64,000 nucleotides of DNA from an uncultured Ruminococcus sp. GTDB lineage: Bacteria; Bacillota; Clostridia; Monoglobales; Monoglobaceae. The translations under genes and the position numbers were made by a program. How positions within the stretch are numbered: the first letter of the stretch is position 1; every line of letters starts with the position of its first letter. Below are positions 1 through 57,962 of this stretch, one piece after another. Location of the stretch: positions 17,687-81,686 of the forward strand of contig CADBUP010000171.1 of assembly GCA_902797885.1 (NCBI GenBank). Reading direction: 5' to 3'. Under the pieces are notes generated by a model. The model searched no databases, was not told the origin of the DNA, and was given only the letters and a program-made list of their open reading frames with translations.

Positions 1-270
1 TTCGGCCAGAATATGGACGATATTCTTACTCAGCTCAGTGAAGGCGATCTGATTGGTGCTGTGGAATGCTCTATCAATGTTGTGAAGCGCATGAATGTTG
101 CCGAGAGTATGTCCTTTGATCCGTTTATTGACTATATTAAGTCCTGCCGTGGAAAGTGTATTGTCACGGAAGATGGACAAGAAATGACTACGACAGAAGC
201 AGTTGCATATTTGAAGGAGAAGAATCATGAAGCGTCATCTAACACAACTGGAGAAGCAGACGTTGCTTAA
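1..270 (+). CDS. hypothetical protein, 5'-truncated by window edge
   Basis: Frame is open from nt 1 and stops at TAA 268-270. Overlaps the next gene by 44 nt. No motif recognised. Confidence 0.35.
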   Translation, partial: FGQNMDDILTQLSEGDLIGAVECSINVVKRMNVAESMSFDPFIDYIKSCRGKCIVTEDGQEMTTTEAVAYLKEKNHEASSNTTGEADVA

Positions 271-1291
271 TGAATTTGAAAAACACCTGAACGAAGTGAC
301 GGACGGAAAGGTGTCGTTTACAAAAACCATTACGTCGCCTGAAAAGATTAAGATCTTCTATACGCCGGAAGCCTTTTCCAAGACGGTTCGGCTGATCATG
401 TCCCATACAATGGAAGTCGCTTGGCATTGTCTTGTCAGAAAGAAGGATAACAACTATGAAGTATATGACGTGTTGTCCTATCCTCAGACGGTTGGTCCCG
501 CTCACGTTCATGTAAAGATGGGAAGAACCTTTGGTGACGGAAATCCAAAGGATCCTACGAAGTATTATACAGACTGGTACAATGAAGTGGTTCTGAGCAT
601 GCCGGAAGAGGAAGAAGCGAATCTTTGCGGTCAGTGCCATTCACATGTAAATATGGGCACCACGCCGTCTTCTGTCGATATGGCTCAGCAGAAGGAAGAG
701 TTGGAATTGAAAGGCGGCACAGGTTATTATCTGTTCCAAATTTGGAATAAGAAACTGGAAGTAAACTCTTTCCTGTATGATCTGGACGCTGGCGTTATTT
801 ATGAAAAGGAAGACATCGAGGTCGTTGTTGAAGATGACGACTTTACAGAAATGTCTCATAAAATGCTGTTCCAGCAGGAACCGGAAAAACCTAAGCTTCC
901 AGAGAAGAAGAAAGAAACACCTAAAAAGGTAGTCGATTACACAAAGGAAACCGATTACGACAGATATAGCCGATATGACAGATATGGCGACAGCTACTAT
1001 GACTATGGTTATGGCTATGATTATGGCTGGAAAAATCTTCACAATTATTCTATCGGAGCAGAGGCTGACAATGTGTCAGTTAACCTGATTATTGAAGCTC
1101 ACAGCGTTGCCGAAGCAGAATATCTGTTCCAGGAATGGGCCGATGAAAATTTAGATTATTTGTCCACCATTCTGGAAGAAGCAGGAGCAAAGAACACAGA
1201 AGAAATAAGTTTCTCAAAGGCTACGTGGGTTCCAGATCATGAAATTATTGATATACCATATGAAGAGCTAATGGGAGTTGAATCAATTTGA
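227..1291 (+). CDS. JAB/MPN (JAMM) metalloprotease-domain protein with Tyr/Asp/Gly-rich linker and extra C-terminal domain
   Basis: AAGGAG RBS upstream of the ATG. Glu63 (TMEVAW), then H138-S-H140-x7-S148-x2-D151 (CHSHVNMGTTPSSVD, nt 638-679), which is the canonical JAMM motif. Confidence 0.7.
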   Translation: MKRHLTQLEKQTLLNEFEKHLNEVTDGKVSFTKTITSPEKIKIFYTPEAFSKTVRLIMSHTMEVAWHCLVRKKDNNYEVYDVLSYPQTVGPAHVHVKMGRTFGDGNPKDPTKYYTDWYNEVVLSMPEEEEANLCGQCHSHVNMGTTPSSVDMAQQKEELELKGGTGYYLFQIWNKKLEVNSFLYDLDAGVIYEKEDIEVVVEDDDFTEMSHKMLFQQEPEKPKLPEKKKETPKKVVDYTKETDYDRYSRYDRYGDSYYDYGYGYDYGWKNLHNYSIGAEADNVSVNLIIEAHSVAEAEYLFQEWADENLDYLSTILEEAGAKNTEEISFSKATWVPDHEIIDIPYEELMGVESI

Positions 1292-1956
1292 ATTTATCGA
1301 AAAGCTTTGAATTCTTTGATCCTGATAAGCTCAACGGCCGCATCCATATTATCGGGTGCGGCTCCGTTGGCTCTACGGTGGCAGAACTGCTGGCGCGTTT
1401 CGGGATTAAGGAATTCGTATTGTATGATTTTGATGTTGTAATGCCTCATAACATCGTAAATCAAATGTTTACGAGTAAGCATTTATATCGGCCGAAAACC
1501 GAATGCGTTGCGGAAATGCTGAAGGATATCAACCCGGAAGTAAACGTCAAAATTGAACCGGAAGGCTGGAAAGATCAGCAATTGGATGGTTATGTCTTTC
1601 TTGCGGTTGATAATATTGAGCTTCGCAAAAAGATTGTTGAAGACAATAAATACAACACTTATGTGAAGGCTATGTTCGATTTCAGAACCGGACTCACAGA
1701 CGCGCAGCATTACGCTGCTGATTGGTCCGATATGAAGTCCAAGAAAGCATTTGCCAGCACTATGGAGTTTACGCACGAAGAAGCTGTTCAAACTACTCAA
1801 ATGTCTGCCTGCCAGGTCAGCATGTGTGTGGCTCCTACAGTGAGAATGATCGCAAATGTAGGCGTTGCCAACTTCATTAACTTCGCTAAAGGAGAACATC
1901 TGTATAAACAGATCCCCATTGACGCATTTCAATTTACAGTAGACGCAATAGGATAA
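1288..1956 (+). CDS. ThiF/MoeB/E1-like adenylyltransferase-fold protein
   Basis: IHIIGCGSVGSTVAELLARFG is a Rossmann GxGxxG, followed by VLYDFDVV...NIVNQ. TTG start overlaps the JAB stop by 4 nt, suggesting translational coupling. Confidence 0.7.
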   Translation: MNLSKSFEFFDPDKLNGRIHIIGCGSVGSTVAELLARFGIKEFVLYDFDVVMPHNIVNQMFTSKHLYRPKTECVAEMLKDINPEVNVKIEPEGWKDQQLDGYVFLAVDNIELRKKIVEDNKYNTYVKAMFDFRTGLTDAQHYAADWSDMKSKKAFASTMEFTHEEAVQTTQMSACQVSMCVAPTVRMIANVGVANFINFAKGEHLYKQIPIDAFQFTVDAIG

Positions 1957-2267
1957 ACCGAGAAATGATTACCTAATAAAATTAGGATCTACTGATGTTA
2001 TCGATAGAAAATTCTTGATAGGGTATAAGGAGCCCACTAGCGATGCTGCCTGGACCCTCTCAAAAATGTCTGCACGCAATCTAGATGTCTGCACGCACAA
2101 ACGTAGAACACAAATAACTTTCAAAATTAGATAAACTAATGAAACCGGCTAAGAGCAAAGCAATCATCAGAAAAGTTATCGAAGAACTACTTACTAGTCG
2201 GGACTAGGAGGCCTTCCAGAGCTGCCTGGGCAAGGATCTATACTTAATTTAGATTTCGGAGTTTATT
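1957..2267 (+). ncRNA. candidate RT-associated non-coding RNA (retron msr/msd-like or DRT-template-like); unproven
   Basis: 311 nt with no ORF immediately 5' of the RT. Tandem 13-nt duplication ATGTCTGCACGCA (2066-2078, 2085-2097). GCTGCCTGG occurs twice (2045-2053, 2221-2229). CCCACTAG (2033-2040) is complementary to CTAGTCGGG (2194-2202). Confidence 0.3.
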
Positions 2268-3175
2268 ATGATATACGTAACTGTAAAACAAAAAAGAAAT
2301 GACAAACAATTGAAATGGGAAGATTTTCTGTTTAACGAAGATCCTAAAATTCCAAAAATTCACTATGATGAAACCGGAACAATTACGCGAAAATTATTTG
2401 GCCCAAGCAAAGAGATGCTAAAGAGCGTAAATGTTCCGGGTATGATCGCTCTCTTGAAAGGATTTAACACGAAATATTCTTCTTTGTTTGAAAAGAACAA
2501 AGAAGAATTGTACGATCATTTCAAAATTCCAAAGAAAACAGGCGGGTTCAGGCCTATTGACGCGCCTAAGGACGAACTTCAAACAGCACTGAGAGAGCTT
2601 GTTTTTATTCTATCGGAAAAGTTTGGTCTTCTTTACCATACGGCCGCCTTTGCATATGTGAAGGGGCGCTGTATCACAGACGCGGTAAAGAAACACCAAA
2701 TCAATGAGAGCAATTGGATCCTGAAAACAGATTTCAGCGGCTTCTTTCCGTCCACTACATTGGATTTTGCCATGAGCATGATGTCTATGTTGTGGCCCGT
2801 AAGCGAGATATGCAAAACGAAGGCAGGCGAAGATGAATTAAGAAAAGCGCTAAGCCTTGGATTTCTTAACAATTCTTTGCCGCAAGGCACAGTTTTGTCT
2901 CCTATGCTTACAAATTTGATCATGATTCCCATAGATTACACATTATTCAACGAATTTGCTCATAGGAGATTCGTGTATACCAGATATGCGGATGACATTC
3001 ATATCAGCTGTGTTCAAAGCTTTGATATGGATGAAGTTGTTCAAATGATTAAAGAAGCGTTAGAAATCTTTCATGCGCCATACGAAATTAAGAAAGAAAA
3101 GACGCATTATGGATCCAGAAAAGGCAGAAATAAAATTCTTGGCCTGTCTTTGAATGCTGAAAATAACATAACGGT
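2268..3175 (+). CDS. reverse transcriptase, retron/Abi/DRT class, exon 1
   Basis: FRPIDAP; AAFAYVKGRCITDAVKKH...KTDFSGFFPS (retron-like NAxxH/FFxS region); LPQGTVLSPMLTNL; YTRYADDIHIS (YADD, nt 2984-2995); ILGLSLN (VTG-like region). The ORF runs into an intron. Confidence 0.8.
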
Positions 3176-4362
3176 TGGATAAAACGCTTGTCCCTTTAAA
3201 CTGAAAAGTTTATCGATAACATGGTGAACCTGTAAATGCAGGGTGTCTTAATTTATTAAGGCTAACGGGGAAATCTAAACAATATACATAACACTGAAAC
3301 TATGATATAATACCACCAAAGAAAGGTGGTGGCTTTATGCGCTATAAAGACTTGACTGGGCAAAGATTCTTTTGGTTAACAGTAATAAGAAAATTCGACG
3401 ATCCTAATAGTAAAGAAGTAAAGTGGTTGTGTAAATGTGATTGTGGAAACGAAGTCGTCGTAACTGCTGCAAATTTAAAATCTGGGAATACAAAATCATG
3501 TGGTTGTTATTACCGATCGGAAAGATTAAGAGCCAACATAATAGGCAAACAATTTGGTTTTTTGACAGCAATAAAAAGAATAAACTCCAAAGATGTTTTA
3601 TGCAAATGTTTGTGTGGAAATGAAATAGTTGTTTCATATTCAAATTTAACAAGCGGGAACACGAGATCGTGTGGATGTGCGCTTGTAAGATTTATATTGA
3701 ACGATAAATTAACAAACTTGACAGGAAGAATATTTGGAGAATTATTAGTAATTGCTAGATACGGTGATATGAAAGGTAATAGAAACCCAAAATGGCTTTG
3801 TCGTTGCTCTTGCGGAAGATATACTATAGTAGATGGAGAAAAACTAAAGAGTGGACACACGCAATCATGCGGTTGCATGAAAAACAGTTTGCCAGAATCT
3901 ATTATTGTTAATTATCTAAGATCGCACAACGTATCCTATGAAAAAGAATATAAATTCAAAGATTTAAGAAGTGAAAAAGGATATCCACTAAGATTTGATT
4001 TTAAAATTAATACAGAAAACAGTTTTTTCTTATTGGAGTATCAAGGACAACAACACTACTTAAATCACGACGACTTTGGAAAGCAGCAAAGAGAAGTTAC
4101 TGATAAGCAAAAGAAAGATTATTGTATGAAAAATAATATCGAATTAATTGAAATAAAATACGATGAAGAGATAGTTTCAGTTCTGGAAAAAATATTAATT
4201 GAACATTGTATATTGCATGACAATCCCGTGCCAAGCTCTGACCAAGAGAAGGTGTAACGACTATCCCGCGAGGGAGTAGCTTCTACGTGAAACTCGTAGT
4301 CGCGAAGCGCCATGCATCCTAATATGGATGATGATATAGTCTAGCTTTATGGAAACATAAAG
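3176..4362 (+). mobile_element. group I intron (family 1) interrupting the RT gene
   Basis: GGTGAACC (3223-3230), GCTAACGGGGAAATCTAAAC (3261-3280), CCCGTGCCAAG (4224-4234), GAAGGTGTAACGACTATCC (4248-4266) and GATATAGTC (4333-4341, P7 3' strand). The same blocks recur in five other loci. Boundaries are accurate to a few nt. Confidence 0.75.
3337..4257 (+). CDS. intron-encoded homing endonuclease: 3 tandem CxCxCG...SCGC zinc modules + Vsr/DUF559-like PD-(D/E)XK domain
   Basis: AAAGGTGGTG RBS. Three ~50-aa repeats (e.g. WLCKCDCGNEVVVTAANLKSGNTKSCGC). C-terminal LRFDF...LLEYQGQQHY...TDKQKKDYC...IELIEIKY. Confidence 0.75.
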   Translation: MRYKDLTGQRFFWLTVIRKFDDPNSKEVKWLCKCDCGNEVVVTAANLKSGNTKSCGCYYRSERLRANIIGKQFGFLTAIKRINSKDVLCKCLCGNEIVVSYSNLTSGNTRSCGCALVRFILNDKLTNLTGRIFGELLVIARYGDMKGNRNPKWLCRCSCGRYTIVDGEKLKSGHTQSCGCMKNSLPESIIVNYLRSHNVSYEKEYKFKDLRSEKGYPLRFDFKINTENSFFLLEYQGQQHYLNHDDFGKQQREVTDKQKKDYCMKNNIELIEIKYDEEIVSVLEKILIEHCILHDNPVPSSDQEKV

Positions 4363-4594
4363 ACCCACTGGGCGGGAAAAGAAGTACTGGAAAAGTGCCA
4401 CAAACAACCTGATCATGGACTATAAGAACGGCAAGATTTGGGATGTTGACGACATCCGACACTACGAAGGGTTGCTTTCGTATTACAAAATGGTTGAACC
4501 GGATTGTTTTGATCAGCTGGTGAAACACTATGAAGAGAAGTATCACGTTAGTTTAAAGAAGATCATCAAATATTCTTTGAATAACGGCTGGTAA
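4363..4594 (+). CDS. reverse transcriptase, exon 2 (inferred)
   Basis: Open frame from 4361 to TAA 4592-4594 (PTGREKKYW...LEGLLSYYKMVEPDCFDQLVKHY). Joining 3175|4363 keeps the frame (GT+A=Val), giving 379 aa in total. Confidence 0.55.
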
Positions 4595-4599
4595 AGAGC

Positions 4600-5130
4600 G
4601 ATGCCAACAGTTTAAGAAACTGGGATCTGGTGTAATCAAATCTATCTTTACATGAAGGTAAAAATTACTTCAGAGTCGTCATCATAAATGTTTTAAAGCT
4701 CCGTTTTAAAACATTTCTTCTGACGACTCTGAAGTAATTAATAGTAAAATAAATCCTTACCAAATAATTTAAGGATTTATTTAGATCGCTCCATGTGGAG
4801 TTTAGGGTCACTCCCTAAACTTCGCTACCTCTCCAGCTTTTAGCTGGTGTTATCTTCTCCTTTCGTCCGTCGGACTCGTCACCCGACGGACATTATCCTG
4901 AAATTTTAATCTGCGGTGGCGGAATAAACACAAGCGGAATTGAATAAATAAACTATGTTTATTTGATAATCCGCAGTGGACGCAATAACAACGCTCATGC
5001 GAAGCGAGTTGTGTCAGTAGACGCTTATCAGCCTAAGGCGAATAGTTTCAAACAGGTTTTGCGATAAAGGCATATAATTCCTGCTCACTATCAATGTCGC
5101 TATGTGTGGTGGAAATCCACACCCGCAGTA
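4600..5130 (+). ncRNA. candidate large structured RNA / multi-hairpin region (function unknown)
   Basis: About 530 nt with no credible ORF. Hairpin 4663-4739 has a 19-bp outer stem and a 12-bp inner stem. Further hairpins at 4747-4782, 4800-4820, 4834-4848 and 4865-4891, followed by the repeat module 4916-5123. Confidence 0.3.
5099..5123 (+). repeat. 25-nt exact repeat GCTATGTGTGGTGGAAATCCACACC, copy A (contains hairpin GTGTGG/CCACAC)
   Basis: Identical to 6256-6280. Lies about 20 nt upstream of the ATG at 5143. Confidence 0.9.
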
Positions 5131-5142
5131 AAGGAGAACTAT

Positions 5143-5535
5143 ATGCATACGATATTAGTGTCAGAAAAATATTACTTCAGTGATGAAGATATGGAAAACA
5201 TTGTTGTCACGGCGTTAGAAGACGGTATTGGCTATTGGGCTTGTTTGGATAATTCCGATGTGGAGCCACGGGATTGGGGTGACTGGACAAAGAAGCCAAA
5301 GGATATGCCTACATCAGTATATGCCTGGAAAATCATTCAATCTGGCGGCACTCTGCACTTCTTGGATGCAGAAGACGAGACAGCGGAATATTACTTTAGC
5401 CTGGTAAACCTATATACAGGCATCAGTATGGCGATAGGATCTGGTATGTGGGACGGAGACATTGATATATTGGATTCGAGTGTTGCCGATGCTATCTTTC
5501 AATATGGACTATTTGGAAAGTTGGTATATTCATGA
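5143..5535 (+). CDS. hypothetical protein
   Basis: AAGGAG RBS 8 nt upstream of ATG 5143. ATGA stop/start overlap with the next ORF. Confidence 0.7.
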   Translation: MHTILVSEKYYFSDEDMENIVVTALEDGIGYWACLDNSDVEPRDWGDWTKKPKDMPTSVYAWKIIQSGGTLHFLDAEDETAEYYFSLVNLYTGISMAIGSGMWDGDIDILDSSVADAIFQYGLFGKLVYS

Positions 5536-5936
5536 GCAATTGGACGCATGTAGCCGGAATAATCCGGCTGGACTCGTTTCGGATCGATATGTATCCAGAG
5601 CCAAACTTCGATAAACTTTTCGGAAAGAAACTAAATTATGGAAATTGGGAAGACGCACGGAAACATCCTGAAAAATATCTTCCGTTCGGCAGTGAAGGCT
5701 CACTTGATAAATCAGTGTGGGTAAATCCAGAAAAAAGCAGTATTCCTGCGTATACGGTTTCGATCTTTGGCGATCTGAGAGATCATGATTCAGTCAAAGA
5801 TATTATCGAATGGTTCAAAGAAAAGTGTAAATTCTGTAACTCTGACAATACACATGTTTGGGTGCGGCAGGCGACTATTACAGCATCTAACGAGCGATAC
5901 GGAACAGAGTCTTGGACATACGAAGAAGAAGCTTAA
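5532..5936 (+). CDS. hypothetical protein
   Basis: Translationally coupled ORF of 134 aa. No motif recognised. Confidence 0.65.
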   Translation: MSNWTHVAGIIRLDSFRIDMYPEPNFDKLFGKKLNYGNWEDARKHPEKYLPFGSEGSLDKSVWVNPEKSSIPAYTVSIFGDLRDHDSVKDIIEWFKEKCKFCNSDNTHVWVRQATITASNERYGTESWTYEEEA

Positions 5937-5954
5937 TCCCGCGAAAGCGGGTAC

Positions 5955-6025
5955 GCAGCCGTAATGTAATGGCAACATATTTGCCTTCCAAGCAAAATTT
6001 GCGGGTTCGAATCCCGTCGGCTGCT
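5955..6025 (+). tRNA. tRNA-Gly (anticodon UCC); CCA follows at 6026-6028
   Basis: Hand-folded cloverleaf: acceptor GCAGCCG/CGGCTGC, D stem ATGT/ACAT, anticodon stem TTTGC/GCAAA with loop CTTCCAA, T arm GCGGG-TTCGAAT-CCCGT. Confidence 0.85.
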
Positions 6026-6028
6026 CCA

Positions 6029-6667
6029 AGGGAAAACGTGCGCTAAAATCTTCAAAGTGACCCTGCAAACGGTAAAAGAAGATTGACTGATAGGAAAGAC
6101 TATCGTTTTGCTGTGGCGGAATAGACAACCATAATCAAACCAATGCGCTTGGATTGGGAAGTTGGCAAGCAAATTATACAAGTTGCTTGTAGTAGACGCT
6201 TAAAACGTAAGGCTTGTCGCCGGTAAGCCCTTTGTGGAGCCGTGGCCGCAGTACTGCTATGTGTGGTGGAAATCCACACCGGCAAAACAATAGACCTGCC
6301 AGCGCCTCTGCTTAGCACGCGTACCTTGGGGGCACCGCATAACCGAACGCGGTATATAAGATTATGTAACTACGGTTGTTAGTGTTACTGCGCAGAGATG
6401 AAAGCTAACGTAAAAATTCTCAGCGCGTTTAACTTTGGTAAGGGCCCCGCACGCTGAGACAAGTGACGCGAACCATGCTGGGACTTTTATATGGTCTTTT
6501 GATATCTTCGGATTGAGAAAGTATGAAAACGGACGTGTCCATAAAAAAAGAAAGCCCAAATTTAAAGCCTGTAATAATCCTAGGTATATTACCAGCTTCT
6601 CACAACAGTCCAGTTCATATCGGCTTTCGGATAACCAACCATTTCGGATTGCATTGTGAGAACTTAT
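6029..6667 (+). ncRNA. candidate large structured ncRNA between two tRNAs (ROOL/GOLLD-class is a hypothesis only)
   Basis: About 640 nt with only short mutually overlapping ORFs on both strands. Visibly more GC-rich than its surroundings. Hairpins at 6166-6189, 6209-6232, 6261-6279 and 6390-6427. Flanked directly by tRNA-Gly and tRNA-Pro. Confidence 0.3.
6256..6280 (+). repeat. 25-nt exact repeat GCTATGTGTGGTGGAAATCCACACC, copy B
   Basis: Identical to 5099-5123. Part of a larger shared module (6113-6280 versus 4916-5123). Confidence 0.9.
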
Positions 6668-6740
6668 CTGGGTGTAGCGCAGTTGGCAGCGTGCCTGATT
6701 TGGGATCAGGAGGCCGCCGGTTCAAATCCGGCCACTCAGA
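6668..6740 (+). tRNA. tRNA-Pro (anticodon UGG)
   Basis: Acceptor CTGGGTG/CACTCAG (one G-U), anticodon stem CCTGA/TCAGG with loop TTTGGGA, T arm GCCGG-TTCAAAT-CCGGC. Confidence 0.85.
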
Positions 6741-6766
6741 TTAACAAAAAAAGGAGACAGATATCT

Positions 6767-7255: not shown

Positions 7256-7270
7256 CGGTCTCCCCTATCT

Positions 7271-7343
7271 GCGCCTGTAGCCAAGAGGATAAGGCCGCGC
7301 TCTTCTAAAGCGCTATTCGCGGGTTCGATCCCTGCCAGGCGCG
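7271..7343 (+). tRNA. tRNA-Arg (anticodon UCU)
   Basis: Acceptor GCGCCTG/CAGGCGC, anticodon stem GCGCT/AGCGC with loop CTTCTAA, T arm GCGGG-TTCGATC-CCTGC. Confidence 0.85.
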
Positions 7344-7370
7344 TTTTATTTCGCTATAAGGAGAAGTATT

Positions 7371-7763
7371 ATGAAAGAGTTTCTCTTGTTAATTACAATT
7401 ATTTTCTTTCATATTCTGGACGATTTTCATCTGCAGGGAATCTTAGCCTCCATGAAGCAAAAGAATTGGTGGGCAGAGCATTATCCTGATAAACTGTACA
7501 AGCATGATTATATTATCGCGCTGATTACACACTCTTTTTCCTGGTCGTTCATGGTTCATTTGCCGGCGTTCGTCTATCTGTATATCACAGGTAAACAAAT
7601 GCCATTGTTTTTCTTAATCATTTCTTTCGTGGCGCATATATGTTGTCACGCCTGTGTTGATAACGATAAGGCGAACAGACATATTATTTCGTTAGTTGAA
7701 GATCAATGTATTCATCTTATTCAGCTAATAGGAATCTGGATGATGTTCGTGCTATATCGTTAA
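7371..7763 (+). CDS. integral membrane protein (DUF3307-like, HILDDFHLQG motif)
   Basis: AAGGAG RBS. Several hydrophobic segments. Confidence 0.6.
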   Translation: MKEFLLLITIIFFHILDDFHLQGILASMKQKNWWAEHYPDKLYKHDYIIALITHSFSWSFMVHLPAFVYLYITGKQMPLFFLIISFVAHICCHACVDNDKANRHIISLVEDQCIHLIQLIGIWMMFVLYR

Positions 7764-7776
7764 GGAGAAGATAAAA

Positions 7777-8100
7777 ATGGAAATAAAAACTGAGTTAGTC
7801 CCAAGATATAAAGTTGGAGATCGAGTCAAAATCCGGTCAGTTCCAACGATACGACATCTATGTGCGACAACAGGTTTACTTGCTGGCTGGGGCTCACCAA
7901 TGGAGGAATTTTGCGGTAAAAGTTATGTTATTTCATCCATTGAACTATCCAATAGAAAAAATTTCTTTAAATATAAATTTCTTAAAATGCCAGAATCTAT
8001 GCAAATGTGGACGTGGTCAGAAGATATGTTCGATTTGGACGTTTCTCAGGAAGAGATAGAAAAACAGGAAAACGAGTTTCTGGAATTGATCGGTTTCTGA
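7777..8100 (+). CDS. hypothetical protein
   Basis: AAGGAG RBS. 107-aa ORF. Confidence 0.6.
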   Translation: MEIKTELVPRYKVGDRVKIRSVPTIRHLCATTGLLAGWGSPMEEFCGKSYVISSIELSNRKNFFKYKFLKMPESMQMWTWSEDMFDLDVSQEEIEKQENEFLELIGF

Positions 8101-9539: not shown

Positions 9540-10034
9540 ATGAGCCAGATGAAGGTAAACTTTGTAGCTTCATGGCGTCCAGACGCTGATAAGTTTTACA
9601 ACGCTGACGCCCAAAAGGTAGCGGAAGAGATATATTCCATAGGTGAAAATCCACAGGCTTCAGACATTCTGAATATGGCCAGAAACAGCGAGACTGAAAC
9701 TCATAAGCTCATCGAGTGGGATGACACTTTGGCGGCTGAGAAATATCGACTGAAGCAGGTTGCAAACATTCTTCACGATCTTCATATTGTAAAGATCGGG
9801 CTGAACGAAGAAAAGAAAGAAGAACGACTGAAGGTCCCCGTAAGGATGTTCTATCACTTAAACGGCGAATCGGGTTATCGTTCTTCTCCAGCCATCTTTC
9901 AGGATGAATCACTGCATCATAAGCTGCTGATGACCGCTATGTCAGAACTGCATGCATTCAGTAAGAAGTACGCTACGCTTTCTGAATTAAAGCCAGTGTT
10001 TGAAGCTATTCAAAATTTAGATAAGACAGCTTAA
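9540..10034 (+). CDS. hypothetical protein
   Basis: 164-aa ORF. No confident motif. Confidence 0.55.
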   Translation: MSQMKVNFVASWRPDADKFYNADAQKVAEEIYSIGENPQASDILNMARNSETETHKLIEWDDTLAAEKYRLKQVANILHDLHIVKIGLNEEKKEERLKVPVRMFYHLNGESGYRSSPAIFQDESLHHKLLMTAMSELHAFSKKYATLSELKPVFEAIQNLDKTA

Positions 10035-12472: not shown

Positions 12473-13882
12473 AAACTGCTTGCCTATATTGCGTTGTCAA
12501 ATTCTGCCACTGATCCTTGGGACGACTTTGATATTGACCGTGTCATTGTTGTTCCAGACTGGGAAGCACCAGTAACTGGTGATATGCTGTACATAAAGCC
12601 AGATTACACAACAGAACGCGGTATCCGCACCGTTATGATCAAGCATACAGACGGTTGCGGAATGATGCTTCCTTCTGTATCTGACAAGAATTTTATGATT
12701 CGTGGACCGTTTGTTAAAGGATTACTCTCAGTGTTCGATTACATAAAATTTTGTAAAGAACATGGGGTTAAGCCAGAAATTGAAGATATTTACGGTGTTG
12801 TTCACGACTTGGAAAAAGAAAGAATTAATATCATTCTTTTTAAATCCATGTTTAAAATGAGCCACTACTTTGATTCCTGGAACTCGTACAAAGAATCCTT
12901 TAAGAAATACGGCTGCCACTTTGGGAAAACGAATTACGAAGAAGACTATTTGCCGGACAAGCAAATGAATTACCAGTTCACGCAAGCGGTGAATATGACT
13001 GATGAAGAAATCAGTAAATACACCGAGAAAGCACACAAGCGGCTGGAGAACCTCGCGAAGAATAAAACCTCCATGCTGCAAATGCTGAAAGCTTCTTCTA
13101 CTTCTCCTAATCCCTATTGTCGCGCTCTAATGATATATCCTGAATTGCTTAGAGATTACTACTCTCGTCAGCAATTGAAGGATATAAAGAAGAAAATGCT
13201 GTACGACGCAAAGTCCGGCGCAATCAAGTGCGAAAATAAGCGGTTGTTTGTCATCCCGGATTTATATGCTGCGTCAGAATACTATTTTCTTCATAAAGAG
13301 CGGCCTGACGGCCTTCTGAAAAATGGCGAAATCGCCTGCCGGCCGTACCGCACTCGCGGCAAAGCGGACGTCCTTCGCTCACCGTCGCTTTATATGGAAC
13401 ATAGTATAAATACTATTGTTGCTGATCCTAAAGTGTACGAATGGTTTACAACCGACGCAGTTGTGACCAGCTGCCATTCAATGATAAGTCGTATTCTGCA
13501 ATTCGATGTCGATGGAGATCAACTTAATGTGGTGGTTGATCCAGTAATTGTAAACGCAGCCGAAAGAAATCTGAAAGAACACGACATTGTCCCTTTGTTC
13601 TATGACGCGGCGAAAGCTAAAGATGAAATTGTCAATAAGGATTCAATATTCAACGGCCTGAAAAGAGCGCATGAATATTCAAATATTGGCGAGATCAGCA
13701 ATATGCTTACGTGTCTGTGGAATAGAAACAAGCCGGATATTGAAGCAGCTGCATTGCTTACTGCTCTCAATAATTGGCGCATAGATGGAGCAAAGACCGG
13801 ACTTGTTTATGAATACGCAAGTTATCCTCAAGTAACTAAACGTATAAATAAAGCTACAGGGGGATCTCACGCAAAGATGCCT
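12473..13882 (+). CDS. YonO-like RNA polymerase, exon 3 (catalytic DxDGD)
   Basis: ILQFDVDGDQLNVVVDP matches the Mg-binding NADFDGDQ motif of the multisubunit RNAP beta-prime barrel and of YonO/QDE-1-type enzymes. Confidence 0.7.
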
Positions 13883-15338
13883 TAACGAATAGGGCCGCAT
13901 ATTGGTAACAGTATGTGATAACGTGGTGAACCTGCAAACGCAGGGTGTCGCAGAAATGCGGCTAACGGGGAAAACTAAACGCAATTATTTTACTTAACTT
14001 TATACAGAAAGGTGGTGATAATATGAGCCATGCAAAATATTATAACGGAAAAACCATTAAAGAATGGTCTGCTGTTTGTGGGATCGAAGCAAAAACAATC
14101 AAAAACCGACTTAAAGAAGGTTGGTCTATTGACCATGCGATTTCTGTTCCGCTCGGTGAAAAGCGCGTTGCGACAATATCTCTATCAAAAATAGCTGCAG
14201 AAAATAAAATGTCGTTTAGTACATTGAAAAACAGGATCAACAAAGGAATGACAATTGAAGAAGCGATTAAATACGATCCGCGAAAAGATATGATAGGATA
14301 TAGATCAGGACGGCTTGTCGTAGAAAAAGAAATTGAACCAAAACGTGATCCATCTGGGAGACCAAGAAGACAGTTTTTATGTTTGTGCGATTGCGGAAAT
14401 GAAACAACAGCTCTTGCCGAAGTACTTATTTCTGGGAACAAGCGATCTTGCGGTTGTCTCGGAAAAGAAATAACATCTAAAAGACAAGAGAAAAATCTAA
14501 TTGGACAAACATTTGGAAGATGGTATATAGAAAGCGAAGCTTTTCGCGACAATCAAGGTATTCATTGGAACGCAGTGTGTTCTTGCGGAAATAAAGGCAC
14601 TCCAACAACAAGCAACTTATTAAAGGGAGTGAGCACGTCTTGTGGGTGTTACAATAAAGAACAAACCTCATTGCGTGAAAGAAAAGATTTAACAAATCAA
14701 AAGTTCTTTATGCTGACAGCGATTGAATACATTGGAATCGATGAATACAATAATTGTCTTTGGCGATGCAAATGCGATTGCGGAAATGAAATTGTGACGA
14801 CAGCCGGAAGATTGCTTGGAGGACAAATCATTTCATGTGGATGCCTTAGATCAAAATATGAACGTATGATTGAAGATGTTCTTATCTCGAAAAATATTTT
14901 CTTTAAAAAAGAAAAATATTTCAAAGATTTAAAACATATCAATTATTTGTTTTTTGATTTTTGCATCATAGATCATGATAACAACATTCATTTGATAGAA
15001 TATCAGGGCAAGCAGCACTATGTTGACTGTGGGGAATTTGGTAGATTGCAACGAGAGATAACAGATCAAATGAAAAAAGATTATTGTTCGAAAAACAATA
15101 TTCCATTATATGAAATTCGCTACGATAGCAATGTCGAAGATGAATTAAATAAGATAATTGCGCATGTCAATCCCGTGCTAAACTCTGAATTATCAGAGGA
15201 AGTGTAACGACTATCCCGTAAGGGAGTAACTACTACGTGAAATTCGTAGTTGTGAAGTGCCACGCAGACAAAGGATAGCTTTGCCTGAAGATATAGTCTA
15301 TTCCCCTAATAAATATCGGGAAACCGAGGGTACTATAG
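13883..15338 (+). mobile_element. group I intron (family 1) with homing-endonuclease ORF
   Basis: GGTGAACCTGCAAACGCAGGGTGTC, GCTAACGGGGAAAACTAAAC, GTGTAACGACTATCCC, GATATAGTCTA and TCGGGAAACCGA hairpin. Joining 13882|15339 is in phase 0. Confidence 0.75.
14023..15207 (+). CDS. intron-encoded homing endonuclease: 2 HTH-like repeats + 3 CxCxCG...SCGC modules + PD-(D/E)XK domain
   Basis: AAAGGTGGTG RBS. Contains LCLCDCGNE...SCGC, VCSCGNK...SCGC, WRCKCDCGNE...SCGC and FFDF...LIEYQGKQHY...IPLYEIRY. Confidence 0.75.
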   Translation: MSHAKYYNGKTIKEWSAVCGIEAKTIKNRLKEGWSIDHAISVPLGEKRVATISLSKIAAENKMSFSTLKNRINKGMTIEEAIKYDPRKDMIGYRSGRLVVEKEIEPKRDPSGRPRRQFLCLCDCGNETTALAEVLISGNKRSCGCLGKEITSKRQEKNLIGQTFGRWYIESEAFRDNQGIHWNAVCSCGNKGTPTTSNLLKGVSTSCGCYNKEQTSLRERKDLTNQKFFMLTAIEYIGIDEYNNCLWRCKCDCGNEIVTTAGRLLGGQIISCGCLRSKYERMIEDVLISKNIFFKKEKYFKDLKHINYLFFDFCIIDHDNNIHLIEYQGKQHYVDCGEFGRLQREITDQMKKDYCSKNNIPLYEIRYDSNVEDELNKIIAHVNPVLNSELSEEV

Positions 15339-16163
15339 TATTTCTTTCAATACAGTAAAAACGGCCGCTCATCAGGAAAGCCAAAGGAAAGCTACGCGAA
15401 GCCTACCAAATCAACCATGAACAGGATCTGTGCCGCATTCGATGATATCGGCAACATCAATCTGAATTTTGCAGGAGTGCCGCCGTTTAATTATCAGATG
15501 CTGCTTTCAGAGCCGTTCTATGACAAAAACACGGAACTAGTTCAAACATTCTGCGATTTAGACAGCATGTCTATCTCAACAGAAATAGCTCTGTCTGAAA
15601 TTCCGCCGCATGAAAGAAACTCTACTGGAATGTATGAAATTTTGGCAGACGTCATCAAAGAAACGCTAACGGAGCAATTTGGATCTATGGAATATTGTTA
15701 TCCAATACTCGTAAAAGCGCTTTTTGCTGGCGATAATTGGAAAAAAGCCTCGCATAAAAAGATGTTCTGGCGAATCTTTGGTGAAATTGCACTGCAAAAC
15801 ATAGAAAATAATCTTAAAGACCATACAGTGTGTCCTGATTGCGATGCAAAAATTCCCAAATGGGCCAAAGATCATACATGCCCAAAGAACACTTTAGGCT
15901 TCTACGTGTGCGAAGATTGCGGAAAGCAATGTGTCAGAATTAACTCAAGGCAGGTGCGATGTGAAGAATGCCAAAAAGCGCACAGGGAGGAATCCAACAA
16001 ACTTGCGCATACGAAAATGCGAGAACGTAAAAAGGTGTGTGAGAAACGGTGTATTTCTTTCTTGCGATCACGCTCGATGGCAACGTCAGAGACGGAACCT
16101 TCTGGCCAGCCTATGTTCTTTGTAAATCATGGACAACAAGCGAAAAGCGATCAGGATGGATAA
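15339..16163 (+). CDS. YonO-like RNA polymerase, exon 4 (C-terminal Zn-ribbon region)
   Basis: In-frame TAG at 15336-15338 marks the upstream limit of the open frame. CPDCDAK...CPKN...CEDCGKQC...CEECQ cysteine pairs. Confidence 0.6.
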   Translation, partial: YFFQYSKNGRSSGKPKESYAKPTKSTMNRICAAFDDIGNINLNFAGVPPFNYQMLLSEPFYDKNTELVQTFCDLDSMSISTEIALSEIPPHERNSTGMYEILADVIKETLTEQFGSMEYCYPILVKALFAGDNWKKASHKKMFWRIFGEIALQNIENNLKDHTVCPDCDAKIPKWAKDHTCPKNTLGFYVCEDCGKQCVRINSRQVRCEECQKAHREESNKLAHTKMRERKKVCEKRCISFLRSRSMATSETEPSGQPMFFVNHGQQAKSDQDG

Positions 16164-24511: not shown

Positions 24512-26230
24512 TTGCTTGAGTACGAGGGGTATCACATTCACACTTGTTACAGTAATGCCCTAACTCAGCCGGATTCTACTGTGTTCATCAAGGATTACGC
24601 GAAAGCTTACCGAGAACGCGGGCATAAGGTATTGTGCATCTCAGAGCATGGAAATCGATCCAATGTGTGGGAGCAATTCGATATATGCGAAGCGTATAAG
24701 AACGATAAAGACAGTCCTTATGTAATGACGCCGATTGCGGCGGCTGAAGCATATTTTGTTCCAGACAGGCTAAAAGAAGTTGACGGAAAGAAAGACGGCA
24801 GAAACTTTCATTTGATTCTTGTAGCGAAAGACATGGAAGGTTTCTACGAATTAAACGAAGCGTTGTCGGAAGCCAATCTGACAGGTTTCTACAGTAAAGC
24901 CAGAGTGGATTTCGATATTCTGTCTAAGCTGGATTATAAACATTTTATATGCACAACCGCATGTGTAAGTGGCATATTAAAGGATGAAAGCTGCGAGCAG
25001 CTGGCTTGTCAGTTACATGAAATATTTAGAGAGAATTTCTATCTGGAAGTACAGCATCATCCACAAAGAATCCAGGCTGAAACAAATATCAAGGCTCTTC
25101 GGTTATATAAGAAATATAATTGGCCGCTGATCTACGGAACAGACAGTCACTATATTAACAAGGAAGACAAAATTCTGAGAACGGAGTTAATGAAGTCTGC
25201 AAATATAACATATGGCGATGAAGATTCGTTCGATCTTCATTTACCAACGGCGGCTGAAGCGTTCAAACTATTCCAAACTCAGGGCGTGCTGTCTAAAGCT
25301 CAGATCGAAGAAGCTATGGAAAACACTCTAATTTTGAGAGATTTTGAAGGCATACACTTTACAAAAGAAAAGAAGATTCCAAATTCTTATCCAGGAGTAC
25401 CAATAGAAAAAAGAAATTATCTATACAAGAAAACAGTTTGCGACGAATATATTAAGAAGGCAGGTATGCCAAATAAAGAAGAAGCAGCTGAGATTCATGC
25501 GGAAATGGACACGATAGCCGATACAGGTACGGCTGATTATTTCCTTATCATGAAGCGAATCATTGATAAGGGAATTGAATATGGTGGAGTATTAACTACA
25601 ACCGGTCGTGGATCAGGCGCATCGTTCGCAACTAACTACGCTATGGGATTTTCATCGATAAATAGATTACACTGCGCTGTAAAAATGTATCCTGAGCGTT
25701 TTATATCAGCTGATCGTTTGGCTAATGGGCTTCCAGATCTGGATTGCAACATGGCAAATGTATCTGCTTTCGAAAAGGCTGGAAAAGAAATATTAGGCGA
25801 ATATGGATGCCTTCCGATGATTGCGTTTGGAACCGTAAAAACACTATCAGCATTTAAATTGTTGGCCAGGGCCAGAGATTTGGACTTTGACACATCCAAC
25901 GCTGTGTCAAAACAAATTCAGAATTACGAACAAGACGTAAAATACGCCAAAGAAAACAACAGCGATGATCCTGATTATGATGTTGACGATGAAGTGCAAA
26001 TTGAGAATTATATTGACGATCAATACATAAAACTTGTTGAAGATTCAAAGCAGTATAAAGGAATTATAATAAGCACTTCTCCGCATCCCTGCGCTCATCT
26101 TTTATTAGATAAGGATATTCGAAGAGAGATTGGCGTTATTCGTGTCAAATCAAAATCTGGAAACAAGGACGCTGTATATGCCGCATTTATTGACGGAAAG
26201 ACGGCAGATAACTACAACTACTTAAAAGCT
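24512..26230 (+). CDS. DNA polymerase III alpha (DnaE)-like replicative polymerase, exon 1 (PHP + palm)
   Basis: N-terminal PHP signature YHIHTCYSN...ISEHGN. The ORF runs into intron landmarks. Confidence 0.75.
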
Positions 26231-27655
26231 AGATATTTGGCCTTTTCTATGGTAACATAGAATTGAAACATGGTGAACATATAAATATATGGTGTTGGGA
26301 TAAAACCCAGCTAACGGCAGAAAGCTAAATGCGAATAGATCAACAACGAAGAAAGAAGGTGAATAAATGCCAGCGAAAAAGAATTTAATTGGCCAAACAT
26401 TTGGGTGGTTAACTGTAATTAAAGAAGCTGAACCACTTATCTTGGCGAGCGGAAAATCAAGAACACAATGTGTTTGTTTGTGCAAATGTGGAAAGGAAAC
26501 AATCGTATCCTCTCAGTCCCTTATACAAGGCACAACAATTTCTTGTGGCTGTTTTGGTGCTATCGCAAGAACAGAAGGAAAAAGAAAAGCCGTGGAAAAC
26601 AAAATGCTCGATAAGCATTTTGGTCGCTGGCACGTTGACAGTTACGCTGGACAAAAATATTTACCTTCTGGTCAAACTCGTAGCTTATGGAATTGTACAT
26701 GTGAATGCGGAACACGCAGAACATTAACTACAAATCAATTAAATGAAGGAAGTTTAAGCTGTGGATGTTTACGTAGCGAACTCGCATCTGCTAGAGAAAC
26801 AATAAATTTAATTGGTATGCGTTTCGATTCTTTAGTGGTGTTAGAAAGAATTGGTTCAAAACATTATGGAAAACAAAAATTATCCATGCCACTATGGAAA
26901 TGCAAATGCGACTGCGGAAAAGAATGCATTGCAACATCTAGAGCTTTAATTGAAGGCAGAAAAAAATCATGTGGATGTCAACGCAGATTAAACTTAGAAG
27001 GTTTACGATTTGGATTGCTTGTAGTTATAAAATACGATGAAACAAAGAAAAAATGGCTTTGTAAATGCGACTGTGGAAACCTTACATATAAAGCTGCAGG
27101 GCATCTTCGAGCTGGCAGTGCAATTAGTTGCGGTTGTCAAGCAATGTCAAAAAATGAGATAATCATAAATGACTATCTCATGAATAAAGGAGTTAAATTT
27201 GCAAATCAATATTCTTTTAAAAAACTAAAAGGGCCTAATGGCGGGCAATTGAGATTTGACTTTGCAATTTTGAATGAAGATAATTTTCCAGTCGCGTTAA
27301 TAGAGTATCAAGGGCAGCAACATTTCGAAGAAATAGAAGGATACGAATATTTCGGAAAAACGGCTCGCGATATAACGGATTTCATTAAAAGGTTGTTCTG
27401 CGATCAAACACATATAGATCTATACACAATAAGCTACAATCAAAACGTAATTGAAGAATGCGATAAAATTCTTTCACAAATAAAATTCGCACATGCCAAT
27501 GCCGTGCCAAGCTCGAAAGAGAAGGTGTAACGACTATCCCATAAGGGAGTAGAACTCAGTGAAACTCTGCGTTCGAAGCGCCATGCAACCGGTTTTACGG
27601 TTGAAGAAATAGTCTAAACCCCTAATAAATATCGGGAAACCGAGGGTATTCATTG
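26231..27655 (+). mobile_element. group I intron (family 1) with homing-endonuclease ORF
   Basis: GGTGAACATATAAATATATGGTGTTGGG, GCTAACGGCAGAAAGCTAAATG, GGTGTAACGACTATCCC, AAATAGTCTA and TCGGGAAACCGA. Joining 26230|27656 gives ...YNYLKA|DFLRVDVV, matching the DnaE LKxDFLGL box. The two exons total 1161 aa. Confidence 0.75.
26367..27530 (+). CDS. intron-encoded homing endonuclease: 4 CxCxCG...SCGC modules + PD-(D/E)XK domain
   Basis: GAAGGTG RBS. Four repeats (CVCLCKCGKE, WNCTCECGTR, WKCKCDCGKE, WLCKCDCGNL, each ending SCGC). LRFDF...LIEYQGQQHF. Confidence 0.75.
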   Translation: MPAKKNLIGQTFGWLTVIKEAEPLILASGKSRTQCVCLCKCGKETIVSSQSLIQGTTISCGCFGAIARTEGKRKAVENKMLDKHFGRWHVDSYAGQKYLPSGQTRSLWNCTCECGTRRTLTTNQLNEGSLSCGCLRSELASARETINLIGMRFDSLVVLERIGSKHYGKQKLSMPLWKCKCDCGKECIATSRALIEGRKKSCGCQRRLNLEGLRFGLLVVIKYDETKKKWLCKCDCGNLTYKAAGHLRAGSAISCGCQAMSKNEIIINDYLMNKGVKFANQYSFKKLKGPNGGQLRFDFAILNEDNFPVALIEYQGQQHFEEIEGYEYFGKTARDITDFIKRLFCDQTHIDLYTISYNQNVIEECDKILSQIKFAHANAVPSSKEKV

Positions 27656-57466: not shown

Positions 57467-57962
57467 CAATTGTGTTATCGTGAAGGCTCTTTATCCTTCA
57501 CTTCTTATAGTTTCCTATAAGTTCGGACTATATCTTCACCCATCGCATTATTGCGATTAGGGGTCGGGCACTTGTATTAGGATTATTGATTACCGTTCTC
57601 ACCTATTAGTCTCTGAACCTTCCGAGATACTATTATCGGTATTCTCTCGGCTTGGCTGCTGATTACCATATTCACATATATAATTTTGATCATATGGCTT
57701 ATCTCTTAAATATCAAGATTTTATCTGAATTAATGTCCAATTCTCTCGCTGCAAATTCTTTACTGAGATATAATTTTTATTAGTGTCTATTTTGTACCAT
57801 TCATATACGTAATACATTATTATCTCCTATTTGTTTCATGCGAACTTAGGCTTCCAGCAATTCACCCGATTGCCAGTGCGGATTACGCCGCACAAGTGCC
57901 ATTGGCGAAAATAGTTTTCGTATTGAAGAAACGCTTGGTTGAATTACGAATCTTCGTTAAGC
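57467..57962 (-). mobile_element. group I intron (family 2, Tetrahymena/IC-like P7 landmarks) with decayed GIY-YIG remnant
   Basis: The minus strand has GGTTCAGAGACTAATAGG (57602-57619) and GAAGATATAGTCCGAAC (57521-57537), which are P7 5'/3' landmarks. GAAA-tetraloop hairpin CTTATAGGAAACTATAAG (57503-57520). Joining 57963|57466 gives T+GT=Cys, in frame. Confidence 0.6.
57713..57817 (-). pseudogene. 34-aa remnant of a GIY-YIG homing endonuclease inside the intron
   Basis: AGGAG RBS. MYYVYEWYKIDTNKNYISVKNLQRENW... parallels I-TevI GIYQIKNTLNNKVYVGSAKDFEKRW (recalled from memory), then terminates. Confidence 0.4.

Follow-up and report, generated by a model that had tools for sequence, protein, structure and literature searches.

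We report a block of phage genes in which a retron may be functionally joined to a cassette for the conjugation of a ubiquitin-like protein (Ubl). The block occupies positions 1-4594 of a 64,000-nt stretch of DNA, contig CADBUP010000171.1 positions 17,687-81,686 (GCA_902797885.1), which we call the window. A JAMM peptidase gene and an E1-like gene are followed by a spacer with the predicted layout of a retron-type non-coding RNA (ncRNA) and by a gene for a retron-class reverse transcriptase (RT). In related loci, genes for a Ubl and for two proteins called P141 and X lie upstream on the same strand. We read window 1-4594 as the 3′ two-thirds of a phage operon in which a complete retron and a Ubl conjugation cassette work together, and give this reading an even chance. 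Functional coupling of the two parts is drawn from synteny, and on that ground we put it at about one half.

The open reading frames (ORFs) on the forward strand of the block are one ending at 270, 227-1291 (354 aa), 1288-1956 (222 aa), 2268-3182 (304 aa), 3337-4257 (306 aa) and 4415-4594. The features of the block, with related loci given by L numbers, are as follows.

1..270, forward strand: 3′ end of gene X, aligned with the C-terminal ends of the L005 and L117 X ORFs; the start lies upstream of the window.
227..1291, forward strand: JAMM/JAB metallopeptidase, 354 aa, catalytic domain at about residues 1-215.
1288..1956, forward strand: minimal E1-like adenylyltransferase (ThiF/UBA5/MoeB type), 222 aa, Pfam ThiF PF00899 E=3.1e-24.
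1953..2266, forward strand: predicted retron-type ncRNA (msr-msd), with an inverted repeat and a layout common to 17 divergent loci.
2268..3180, forward strand: exon 1 of the retron-class RT gene, residues 1-304 and the first base of codon 305; boundary taken from the intron-less L113.
3181..4370, forward strand: putative group I intron, 1190 nt, absent from L113 and L114; partial match to Rfam RF00028.
3337..4257, forward strand: intron-encoded homing endonuclease, 306 aa; PHROG 374 (2.7e-48), 559, 7140 and 9084.
4371..4594, forward strand: exon 2 of the RT gene, residues 305-378 and the stop codon.
4833-4847: terminator-like hairpin from a scan for terminators, where the operon probably ends.

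When viral contigs were scanned with the RT, 54 loci were found, mostly on gut phage contigs of 70-150 kb. Searched with tblastn, 52 of the 54 had the order P141-Ubl-X-JAMM-E1-spacer-RT on one strand. A scan of 185,579 species genomes with a JAMM profile gave 49 loci, mostly in Clostridia bins of metagenome-assembled genomes (MAGs). Many of these lie on contigs of 100-140 kb and are probably binned phages. A retron-type RT was present in 33 of the 49, nine were cut by contig ends, one had a UG27 RT and six had no RT. Seven contexts of JAMM homologues were taken from ENA, JGI and Logan assemblies. The order was kept through the RT in five of them (P0001, P0046, P0050, P0053 and P0054); in P0197 the contig stops right after E1, and in P0289 no RT was present within 4.5 kb after E1. 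Adjacency on one strand was observed in over 85 loci, the most distant of which have a JAMM identity of about 27-40% and an RT identity of 39-46%. Since the same order recurs in 52/54 viral and 33/49 MAG loci, the arrangement is far beyond chance. An annotation made by a model from the letters of the window, which we call the sequence-only reading, had named the joint occurrence of RT homologues with E1 and JAB genes as a check on its proposal, and this survey shows such co-occurrence. Some loci depart from the common order. L087 (7875-11532) has the rearranged order JAMM-RT-E1, L076 (7968-13213) has a 385-aa ORF and a 110-aa ORF inserted between JAMM and E1, and elsewhere additional ORFs separate JAMM from E1 or E1 from the ncRNA.

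The RT exon-1 ORF, 2268-3182, matched Pfam RVT_1 (E=4.3e-19) and PADLOC RT_II-A (2.5e-42), with the retron profiles matched only up to position 244 of 304. Its top NCBIfam match was retron_St85_RT (1.1e-46; 159.5 bits vs a cut-off of 235). The 59-aa ORF at 4415-4594 covers positions 258-302 of the retron RT_I-A and RT_II-A profiles. L113 and L114, with a JAMM protein 92% identical to that of the window, have an uninterrupted 378-aa RT, and joining 2268-3180 to 4371-4594 gave a 378-aa ORF equal in length to the L113 RT. In L113, blastn places window 2245-3180 directly next to 4371-6000 (5594|5595), so the insertion spans exactly 3181-4370. The spliced RT is colinear with the uninterrupted RT of gut-phage contig L001, and the residues ITVGWR are invariant across the joint. 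Compared with PADLOC RT_II-A, the spliced RT scored 1.2e-51 and 174 bits over positions 18-301 of 304. Its 25 best PADLOC models were all retron RTs (25/25), as were those of three divergent relatives. The NCBIfam models of group II maturases and of defence-associated reverse transcriptases (DRTs) scored far lower than retron_St85_RT. These profile comparisons identify the predicted RT as retron-class, closest to type II-A. The sequence-only reading had correctly called it retron-like; ORF 2268-3182 is exon 1 only, and the split of the gene by the intron and its endonuclease had been missed.

The intron ends can be read from the sequence. The 5′ splice site lies after U3180, where P1 would pair exon GGAU with intron GUCC and place a U.G pair at the site. 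P10 would pair CGCU with GGCG of exon 2, and the terminal G is G4370. When the 3′ stretch was searched in isolation, Rfam RF00028 matched 4255-4362, a 5′-truncated match of 30.7 bits (gathering score 50; E=1.4e-6). Rfam did not call the RT intron on the window or on 1900-4700, and the 5′ half alone was also unmatched. We take 3181-4370 to be a probable mobile group I intron, with splicing predicted from these features. Cys-rich modules recur in its homing endonuclease, which has a nuclease-like domain at the C-terminus, and the matched families PHROG 7140 and 9084 are annotated as "intron encoded nuclease" and "homing endonuclease". A promoter-like site with a TG extension is located at 3283-3311, before the endonuclease ORF.

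The spacer between E1 and RT, 1957-2267, is 311 nt long and is without a plausible ORF. Its predicted parts, all on the forward strand, are as follows.

1953-1966, forward strand: a1 arm, which overlaps the E1 stop codon and forms the terminal inverted repeat with a2.
1967, forward strand: candidate branching G, the invariant G after a1.
1972-1986, forward strand: hairpin SL1; two hairpins are present in every locus compared.
1989-2007, forward strand: hairpin SL2, found by RNAalifold with compensatory changes.
~2027-2244, forward strand: variable centre, the putative msd, containing a direct repeat.
2250-2252, forward strand: conserved UAG directly before a2.
2253-2266, forward strand: a2 arm, ending 1 nt before the RT ATG.

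All relatives compared share this layout. On the 5′ side it consists of the a1 arm, the invariant G, 4-7 nt, SL1, 1-2 nt and SL2; on the 3′ side a variable stretch of 150-300 nt is followed by (U)UAG, a2, 1-25 nt and the RT start codon. By blastn, the window spacer had no similarity to the spacers of relatives. The a1 and a2 arms were compared in 17 loci. In this alignment 81% of the cells pair, the inner 8 pairs are almost always paired, and changes on both sides occur at 11 of the 12 pairs. The covariation score was 0.602, compared to 0.24 for shuffles (0/500 reached the observed score) and 0.07-0.14 for slid controls, in an alignment whose anchors (G and AG, both invariant letters) were placed by eye, which favours structure somewhat. 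The anchored alignment was used instead of duplex folding of the spacer ends against mismatched ends, which was swamped by long-loop duplexes. The G after a1 is invariant at column 13 of the alignment, and the AG before a2 is invariant as well. SL2 was also recovered by RNAalifold on an unguided MAFFT alignment, with compensatory changes at 7 of 9 pairs.

Conservation within the block is lowest in the centre of the ncRNA, where the mean column identity is 0.46-0.71 vs 0.90-0.97 in the flanking genes (35 close relatives). The putative msd of the window, 2027-2244, could not be aligned to L113 4451-4658 although the flanks are 88-90% identical; in loci of the L007 type the centre is at 7756-7954. 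A constrained msr next to a free msd fits a retron, and the variable centre may simply reflect neutral drift. From its conserved architecture we conclude that the spacer is predicted to be a retron-type msr-msd RNA, in agreement with the structured spacer that had been proposed from the letters alone. Within the putative msd of the window, the 13-nt sequence ATGTCTGCACGCA occurs twice as a direct repeat, at 2066-2078 and 2085-2097.

These results leave virtually no room for an RT that derives instead from a group II intron or a diversity-generating retroelement (DGR), with the spacer as its RNA. The RT does have a weak secondary match to the group II RT/maturase model TIGR04416, but its 69.9 bits are far under the cut-off of 300, and the best PADLOC matches listed above are all retron RTs. 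Rfam found no group II intron RNA. A DGR-type template is excluded, as the 64-kb window holds no second copy of the spacer, adenine-variable or otherwise; the spacer itself has the a1/a2 plus G layout of a retron. A group II or DGR origin is refuted by the profile scores, Rfam, the spacer-copy search and the spacer layout together. The clustering with group II or DGR enzymes that the sequence-only reading had considered was not found; retron models were best.

The complete JAMM motif reported earlier was confirmed. E63, H138, S139, H140, S148 and D151 of the active site are invariant in 43 aligned homologues. With the AlphaFold2 (AF2) model of the protein (predicted local distance difference test, pLDDT, 85.5), Foldseek returned Rpn11, CSN5, the Caldiarchaeum Rpn11 homologue and Pyrococcus JAMM1 (PfJAMM1) at probability 1.0, with a best E-value of 5e-9, and the predicted fold is that of Rpn11/CSN5. 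The family profile matched Rpn11 among PDB sequences at 1.3e-5. Pfam gave only a sub-threshold Prok-JAB match (E=0.04), and PADLOC had no family match for the JAMM protein. Its homologues form 55 clusters, all metagenomic and unannotated; the full scan of 1.84 billion representatives gave 1283 clusters for the family at E <= 1e-30. The linker after the catalytic domain is of low complexity, rich in Tyr, Asp and Gly, and disordered. It is followed by a C-terminal alpha/beta domain at about residues 270-350, which is confidently predicted (pLDDT ~95). Shorter homologues (235-290 aa) have a different C-terminal domain or none.

The 222-aa E1 had been described as translationally coupled to the JAMM gene, and its TTG start does overlap the JAMM stop by 4 nt. 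In an alignment of 19 family members, the conserved set comprises GxGxxG, D47, D49, N55, Q59, K70, D108, R113 and R133. S173-A174-C175 is near-invariant in the same alignment, the Mg-binding Asp is present, and the CxxC zinc motifs of MoeB and ThiF are absent. The nearest solved relatives are UBA5 (PDB, 3.5e-7), MccB, TcdA, MoeB and ThiF. Every NCBIfam equivalog scored below its cut-off, for example 75.7 vs 159 bits, as did the ThiF and 6A-MBL cap2_3 matches. The PADLOC models for the E1-E2 protein (Cap2) of the cyclic-oligonucleotide-based anti-phage signalling system (CBASS) matched only the Rossmann part, residues 16-98. TIGR03736, the PRTRC ThiF model, gave 17.2 bits vs a cut-off of 144.75.

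In relatives the module has at least two proteins more than the sequence-only reading had listed, Ubl/P141 and X. In viral loci searched with tblastn, the small upstream protein has 75-82 aa where it stands alone, and P141 has 130-147 aa. In 96 clusters the small protein is fused ahead of the P141 domain (125-140 aa). The junction of the fusion, SSIVKIDNAA, is invariant in 40 fused proteins, and 14 unfused Ubls end in K-x-D/E-N-A plus zero to three residues. In L113 the fused protein has 195 aa and reads ...AHKDNAAKA... at this position. The AF2 model of Ubl-P141 has a pLDDT of 88.6. Its first ~75 residues matched SUMO, ISG15, ubiquitin, NEDD8 and UBX with target TM-scores of 0.6-0.73 and root-mean-square deviations of 2.2-3 Å; giant-virus ubiquitin-like proteins were also matched. 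By its modelled structure, the small upstream protein is a Ubl with the predicted ubiquitin fold. In the sequence-only reading, a Ubl or an E2 had been expected upstream of the window. The Ubl is present in relatives, including one with a 92% identical JAMM protein, and no E2 was identified with Pfam, PDB profiles, hhalign or Foldseek.

P141 and X are less easily assigned. In the Foldseek search with the Ubl-P141 model, P141 matched only uncharacterised phage homologues, and the Ubl-P141 profile had no match in PDB. X of relatives has about 470-540 aa, and ~490 aa in the viral loci, with a coiled-coil middle; its equivalent in L113, the closest relative, has 468 aa. P404, H405 and C411 in its C-terminal domain are invariant in the alignment. 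The X profile returned only coiled-coil noise from PDB sequences, hhalign of X with human UBE2D2 gave no match, and Pfam gave no match on any of the 17 X proteins. PADLOC has no family for X, Ubl-P141 or the 85-aa fragment. "PH...CxG" in X recalls the UBC motif "HPN...C", and the alpha-beta4-alpha-alpha order of P141 recalls the UBC fold; these unconfirmed likenesses we take to be leads only.

If the retron and the cassette act together, the block would be transcribed early in infection as one RNA, and splicing of the intron would restore the 378-aa RT. The RT would bind the two msr hairpins and prime on the 2′-OH of G1967. Starting at the template G of UAG (2252), it would then copy leftwards through the variable msd and give a branched multicopy single-stranded DNA (msDNA) with the 5′ end 5′-CTAAA. 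In parallel, the JAMM peptidase would trim the Ubl precursor after the residues ...DNA. E1 would adenylate the Ubl C-terminus and probably form a thioester on Cys175, and the Ubl would be handed, possibly via X or P141, to target proteins. By analogy with characterised retrons, RT-msDNA would be the regulatory or sensor part and the Ubl machinery the effector part. A more specific version, in which RT-msDNA with its fast-changing msd confers specificity or acts as a sensor, and so switches or directs the tagging by Ubl and E1, or is itself tagged, seems to us rather unlikely. The system most likely would serve the phage in its conflict with host defences or rival phages. The parts list and the RNA architecture are observed, whereas each catalytic step is predicted from the protein families.

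We favour coupling because the adjacency persists over deep divergence, through the rearrangement in L087 and several insertions; because a1 overlaps the E1 stop codon and the terminator scan gave no terminator-like site between the module genes or anywhere before 4833; and because no conserved candidate for a retron effector other than the cassette was found next to the RT. To our knowledge, characterised retrons always act with a neighbouring effector. The same facts speak against two independent neighbours, a self-contained Ubl/X/JAMM/E1 cassette and a stand-alone retron, in a variable accessory region that attracts RT elements, with the retron effector absent, unrecognised or the RT itself. 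We consider such independence unlikely, yet a serious contender, since a number of observations favour it and weigh against coupling. The most divergent JAMM-E1 pairs (L104, L105/L106, L107/L110 and L109) are without RT, and such RT-less cassettes in distant relatives include one on a 1.2-Mb Saccharibacteria contig. In L103 (7498-11132), a contig of a Christensenella bin, Ubl-X-JAMM-E1 is followed 9 nt on by a UG27 RT (PADLOC 4.7e-134), and a complete UG27 system takes the place of the retron. The same Ubl cassette can apparently partner with two unrelated RT lineages, retron and UG27. UG27 also occurs elsewhere without E1 or JAMM, with the same partners in Bacteroides phage BS-TP1 and another contig (tblastn vs GenBank phages). 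L052 (5782-8876) and L053, from two samples, have P141, the Ubl (...KTHNA), an ncRNA with intact a1/G/hairpin and AG/a2 parts, and a 469-aa RT with an insertion; of X only an 81-aa stub is left, and the JAMM and E1 genes are lost. Full independence is argued against even here by the Ubl and P141 that still stand beside the retron. In L082 (9451-16598), and probably in L117, E1 and RT stand about 6 kb apart with small ORFs in between, and mobile introns and homing-endonuclease genes abound in the region. The synteny was seen within one broad assemblage of uncultured gut phages, in which shared ancestry alone keeps gene order. No E2 was identified in the cassette with Pfam, PDB profiles, hhalign or Foldseek. 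On the RNA side, the a1/a2 alignment was anchored by hand and the minimum free energy of the whole ncRNA was no better than that of shuffled sequence (z = -0.06). Finally, msDNA synthesis, splicing and conjugation are predictions from sequence.

Other functions for the cassette were also weighed. The removal of host Ubl marks of the Bil type or the CBASS Cap2 type by the JAMM peptidase, with the rest of the block accessory, had been raised in the sequence-only reading as a counter-defence. The intact and strongly conserved JAMM active site would suit this role, the predicted hosts are gut Clostridia, and host Ubl defences against phages are known in Bil and type II CBASS (PMC11601596). However, the cassette encodes both a Ubl, with a C-terminal motif specific to the family, and an E1 to go with it. 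It thereby forms a full kit for conjugation and not just a deconjugase, so that removal of host marks is improbable as the main function. The Ubl-P141 fusions are an obvious in-house substrate for the JAMM peptidase, and nothing ties the block to Bil or CBASS; PADLOC has no matches for the JAMM protein, X or P141. Still less probable, to the point of being very remote, is a sulfur-carrier or cofactor pathway in which the Ubl and E1 would take the part of ThiS/ThiF, MoaD/MoeB or TtuB/TtuC and thiolate tRNA or a cofactor. ThiF, MoeB, TcdA and UBA5 are the best NCBIfam and PDB matches of E1, three tRNA genes lie 3′ of the block, and a cysteine desulfurase gene is close to the block in a few relatives. 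But the E1 scores are far under the family cut-offs and its CxxC zinc motifs are missing, the Ubl ends in D/E-N-A rather than Gly-Gly and is often a fusion that needs a peptidase, no partner of the ThiG/ThiH/MoaE/TtuA type was seen, and the desulfurase is near the block in only 4 of 115 loci.

The RT-less cassettes contain an X-like protein of 343-563 aa, JAMM, E1 and a protein of 103-204 aa that has no assigned fold and may be a Ubl. They come from Flavobacteriaceae, Saccharibacteria (the 1.2-Mb contig), Waltera and other MAGs; among those of Flavobacteriaceae and Saccharibacteria are 3242-6690 in L105, 6877-9961 in L107 and 6848-9658 in L110. A "PH-x7-CxG" motif in their first protein aligns weakly with the C-terminal motif of X (hhalign E=0.0033, probability 9.6%). 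In L103, the UG27 RT is followed by a long perfect hairpin (~9560-9700) and then by the 177-aa and 287-aa UG27 partners. Homologues of these two partners were found in L103, L111 and L112. A related-locus scan with the single L103 UG27 RT found no locus. In L052 and L053 a cysteine desulfurase gene lies 3′ of the RT.

The window is clearly phage DNA, since it contains a split DNA polymerase, primase/helicase, tail fibres, an endolysin, three tRNAs, introns and homing-endonuclease genes. The phage is without a cultured relative. Its primase/helicase has a best identity of 32.6%, to an unannotated gut contig, and megablast of window 1-6000 against GenBank phages gave no match. Gut Clostridia are the predicted hosts, judged from the MAG bins. 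Paralogues of the intron-encoded endonuclease (PHROG 374/559/9084) were found at 14023-15207, between the ORFs 12494-13885 and 15417-16163, and at 26367-27530, where the paralogue separates the DNA polymerase halves 24512-26260 and 27653-29422 (both PHROG 405). Introns or free-standing endonuclease genes probably interrupt the DNA polymerase gene too, and perhaps another gene. On the reverse strand, Rfam calls a complete group I intron at 57504-57923, in the late/structural region (RF00028, 71 bits, with an insertion of ~170 nt). Just 3′ of the module are tRNA-Gly(UCC) at 5955-6028, tRNA-Pro(UGG) at 6667-6741 and tRNA-Arg(UCU) at 7270-7344. In the relative L061, the region equivalent to the tRNA stretch has an RNA ligase/kinase-phosphatase gene.

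In bacteria, retrons are familiar as toxin/antitoxin devices against phages, and they also serve as tools for genome editing. A retron with conserved Ubl, JAMM and E1 partners would add a mechanistically new class of partner, and its lineage-wide presence in large gut phages would show that retrons are used from the phage side of the conflict. Descriptions of Bil, Bub and CBASS Cap2/3 have until now placed them among host defences. With the unusual D/E-N-A C-terminus of its Ubl, a full Ubl/E1/JAMM kit carried by a phage would widen the field of bacterial Ubls, and the JAMM family behind the module is large and unannotated. The intron-less alleles and compact ncRNAs are ready material for work on msDNA. 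If the joined reading is true, reverse transcription combined with Ubl conjugation would give gut phages a nucleic-acid-programmed device for tagging proteins.

The evidence supports the view that a retron joined to a Ubl cassette in a phage is an undescribed RT-linked module, within an incomplete coverage of the literature. In the literature covered, no combination of retrons or other RTs with ThiF, JAMM, JAB or ubiquitin-like partners was described, and PADLOC has none; the statement of the sequence-only reading that no described retron or DRT type has an E1/JAB partner agrees with this. Retrons comprise 13 described types, which are catalogued by partner protein. By its predicted proteins, the module fits none of them, because PADLOC has no family for JAMM, X or Ubl-P141 and matches E1 only in the Rossmann part of Cap2. 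Compared with retron II-A (the St85/Sen2 family), the module has the same RT family, an ncRNA directly 5′ of the RT, a1/a2 arms, a G after a1, msr hairpins, a variable msd and accessory genes in the same operon. In contrast to retron II-A, it has no nucleoside deoxyribosyltransferase-like or other described effector, and the partners are Ubl, X, JAMM and E1. It occurs lineage-wide in large uncultured phages rather than in bacterial defence islands or P4-like satellites, its RT has an extra N-terminal region of ~70 aa and a score under the cut-off (159.5 vs 235 bits for exon 1), and the RT gene of the window bears a putative group I intron.

This putative intron would be like those of T4/SPO1-like phages. 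It is predicted to be self-splicing, is inserted at a highly conserved codon block (ITVGW|R), has an in-frame stop right after the 5′ splice site, carries in a peripheral loop an endonuclease ORF that has a promoter-like site of its own, and is missing from alleles in close relatives. Unlike in those phages, the host gene is a retron RT. We know of no precedent for a group I intron in a retron RT gene, a point on which no search was made.

UG27 systems consist of a gut-phage RT, an ncRNA and partners of unknown function, and were judged to be probably non-defence (Mestre et al. 2022, PMC9226505). Like the module, they have a phage-encoded RT with a structured ncRNA, are widespread in uncultured gut phages, and in L103 occupy the exact retron slot after E1. 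They differ in the RT lineage (UG/Abi class 2) and in their 177-aa and 287-aa partners, which are located downstream, and ordinary UG27 loci are without Ubl, JAMM and E1. The top matches of the window RT are all retron models, which places it outside UG27.

Bil and type II CBASS would share three things with the module: an adenylation domain of the E1 type that activates the C-terminus of a Ubl or a Ubl-like C-terminus, a JAB protein that reverses or processes the product, and a setting of phage-host conflict. CBASS Cap2 is an E2-E1 fusion of ~580 aa, whereas the module E1 has 222 aa; the module also has no CD-NTase or effector match in PADLOC and no recognisable E2. As in Bil, Ubl and JAB are both present. 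However, the BilABCD E1 has a tandem IAD-AAD-CYS arrangement and comes with a recognisable E2, and the module E1 has a single adenylation domain. PRTRC cassettes combine a ThiF-family protein with PRTRC proteins A-F and a ParB homologue; here TIGR03736 was under its cut-off and no other PRTRC model was matched.

Type I Bub operons encode BubAB, a Ubl-E2 fusion, BubCD, a JAB-E1 fusion, and BubE (PMC11601596). In both systems the Ubl is N-terminal to a fusion partner of ~130 aa; JAMM activity is needed to expose the Ubl C-terminus in Bub (PMC11601596) and is predicted to do so in the module. Both also have a minimal E1 of the homodimer type, related to ThiF/UBA5 and tightly paired with JAMM. BubCD is one protein, whereas JAMM and E1 are separate overlapping genes here. 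BubCD is without a crossover-loop cysteine and the module E1 has the near-invariant Cys175; the module Ubl ends in D/E-N-A rather than Gly. The module further differs in that Pfam found no DUF6527 protease, a type I Bub feature, in the cassette proteins, P141 is without a detectable E2 match, X adds a protein of ~500 aa, and the whole is linked to a retron and found in phages. The archaeal SAMP/UbaA/JAMM1 and Thermus TtuB/TtuC systems are alike in pairing a small Ubl and JAMM with an E1 of one domain that has a cysteine in its crossover loop, and in having no recognisable E2 or E3 for conjugation. Unlike the module, they have Gly-Gly Ubls that double as sulfur carriers, are encoded by chromosomal housekeeping genes and have no RT. 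By analogy of parts, the Ubl side of the module would most resemble type I Bub in logic and archaeal SAMP/UbaA/JAMM1 in minimal composition.

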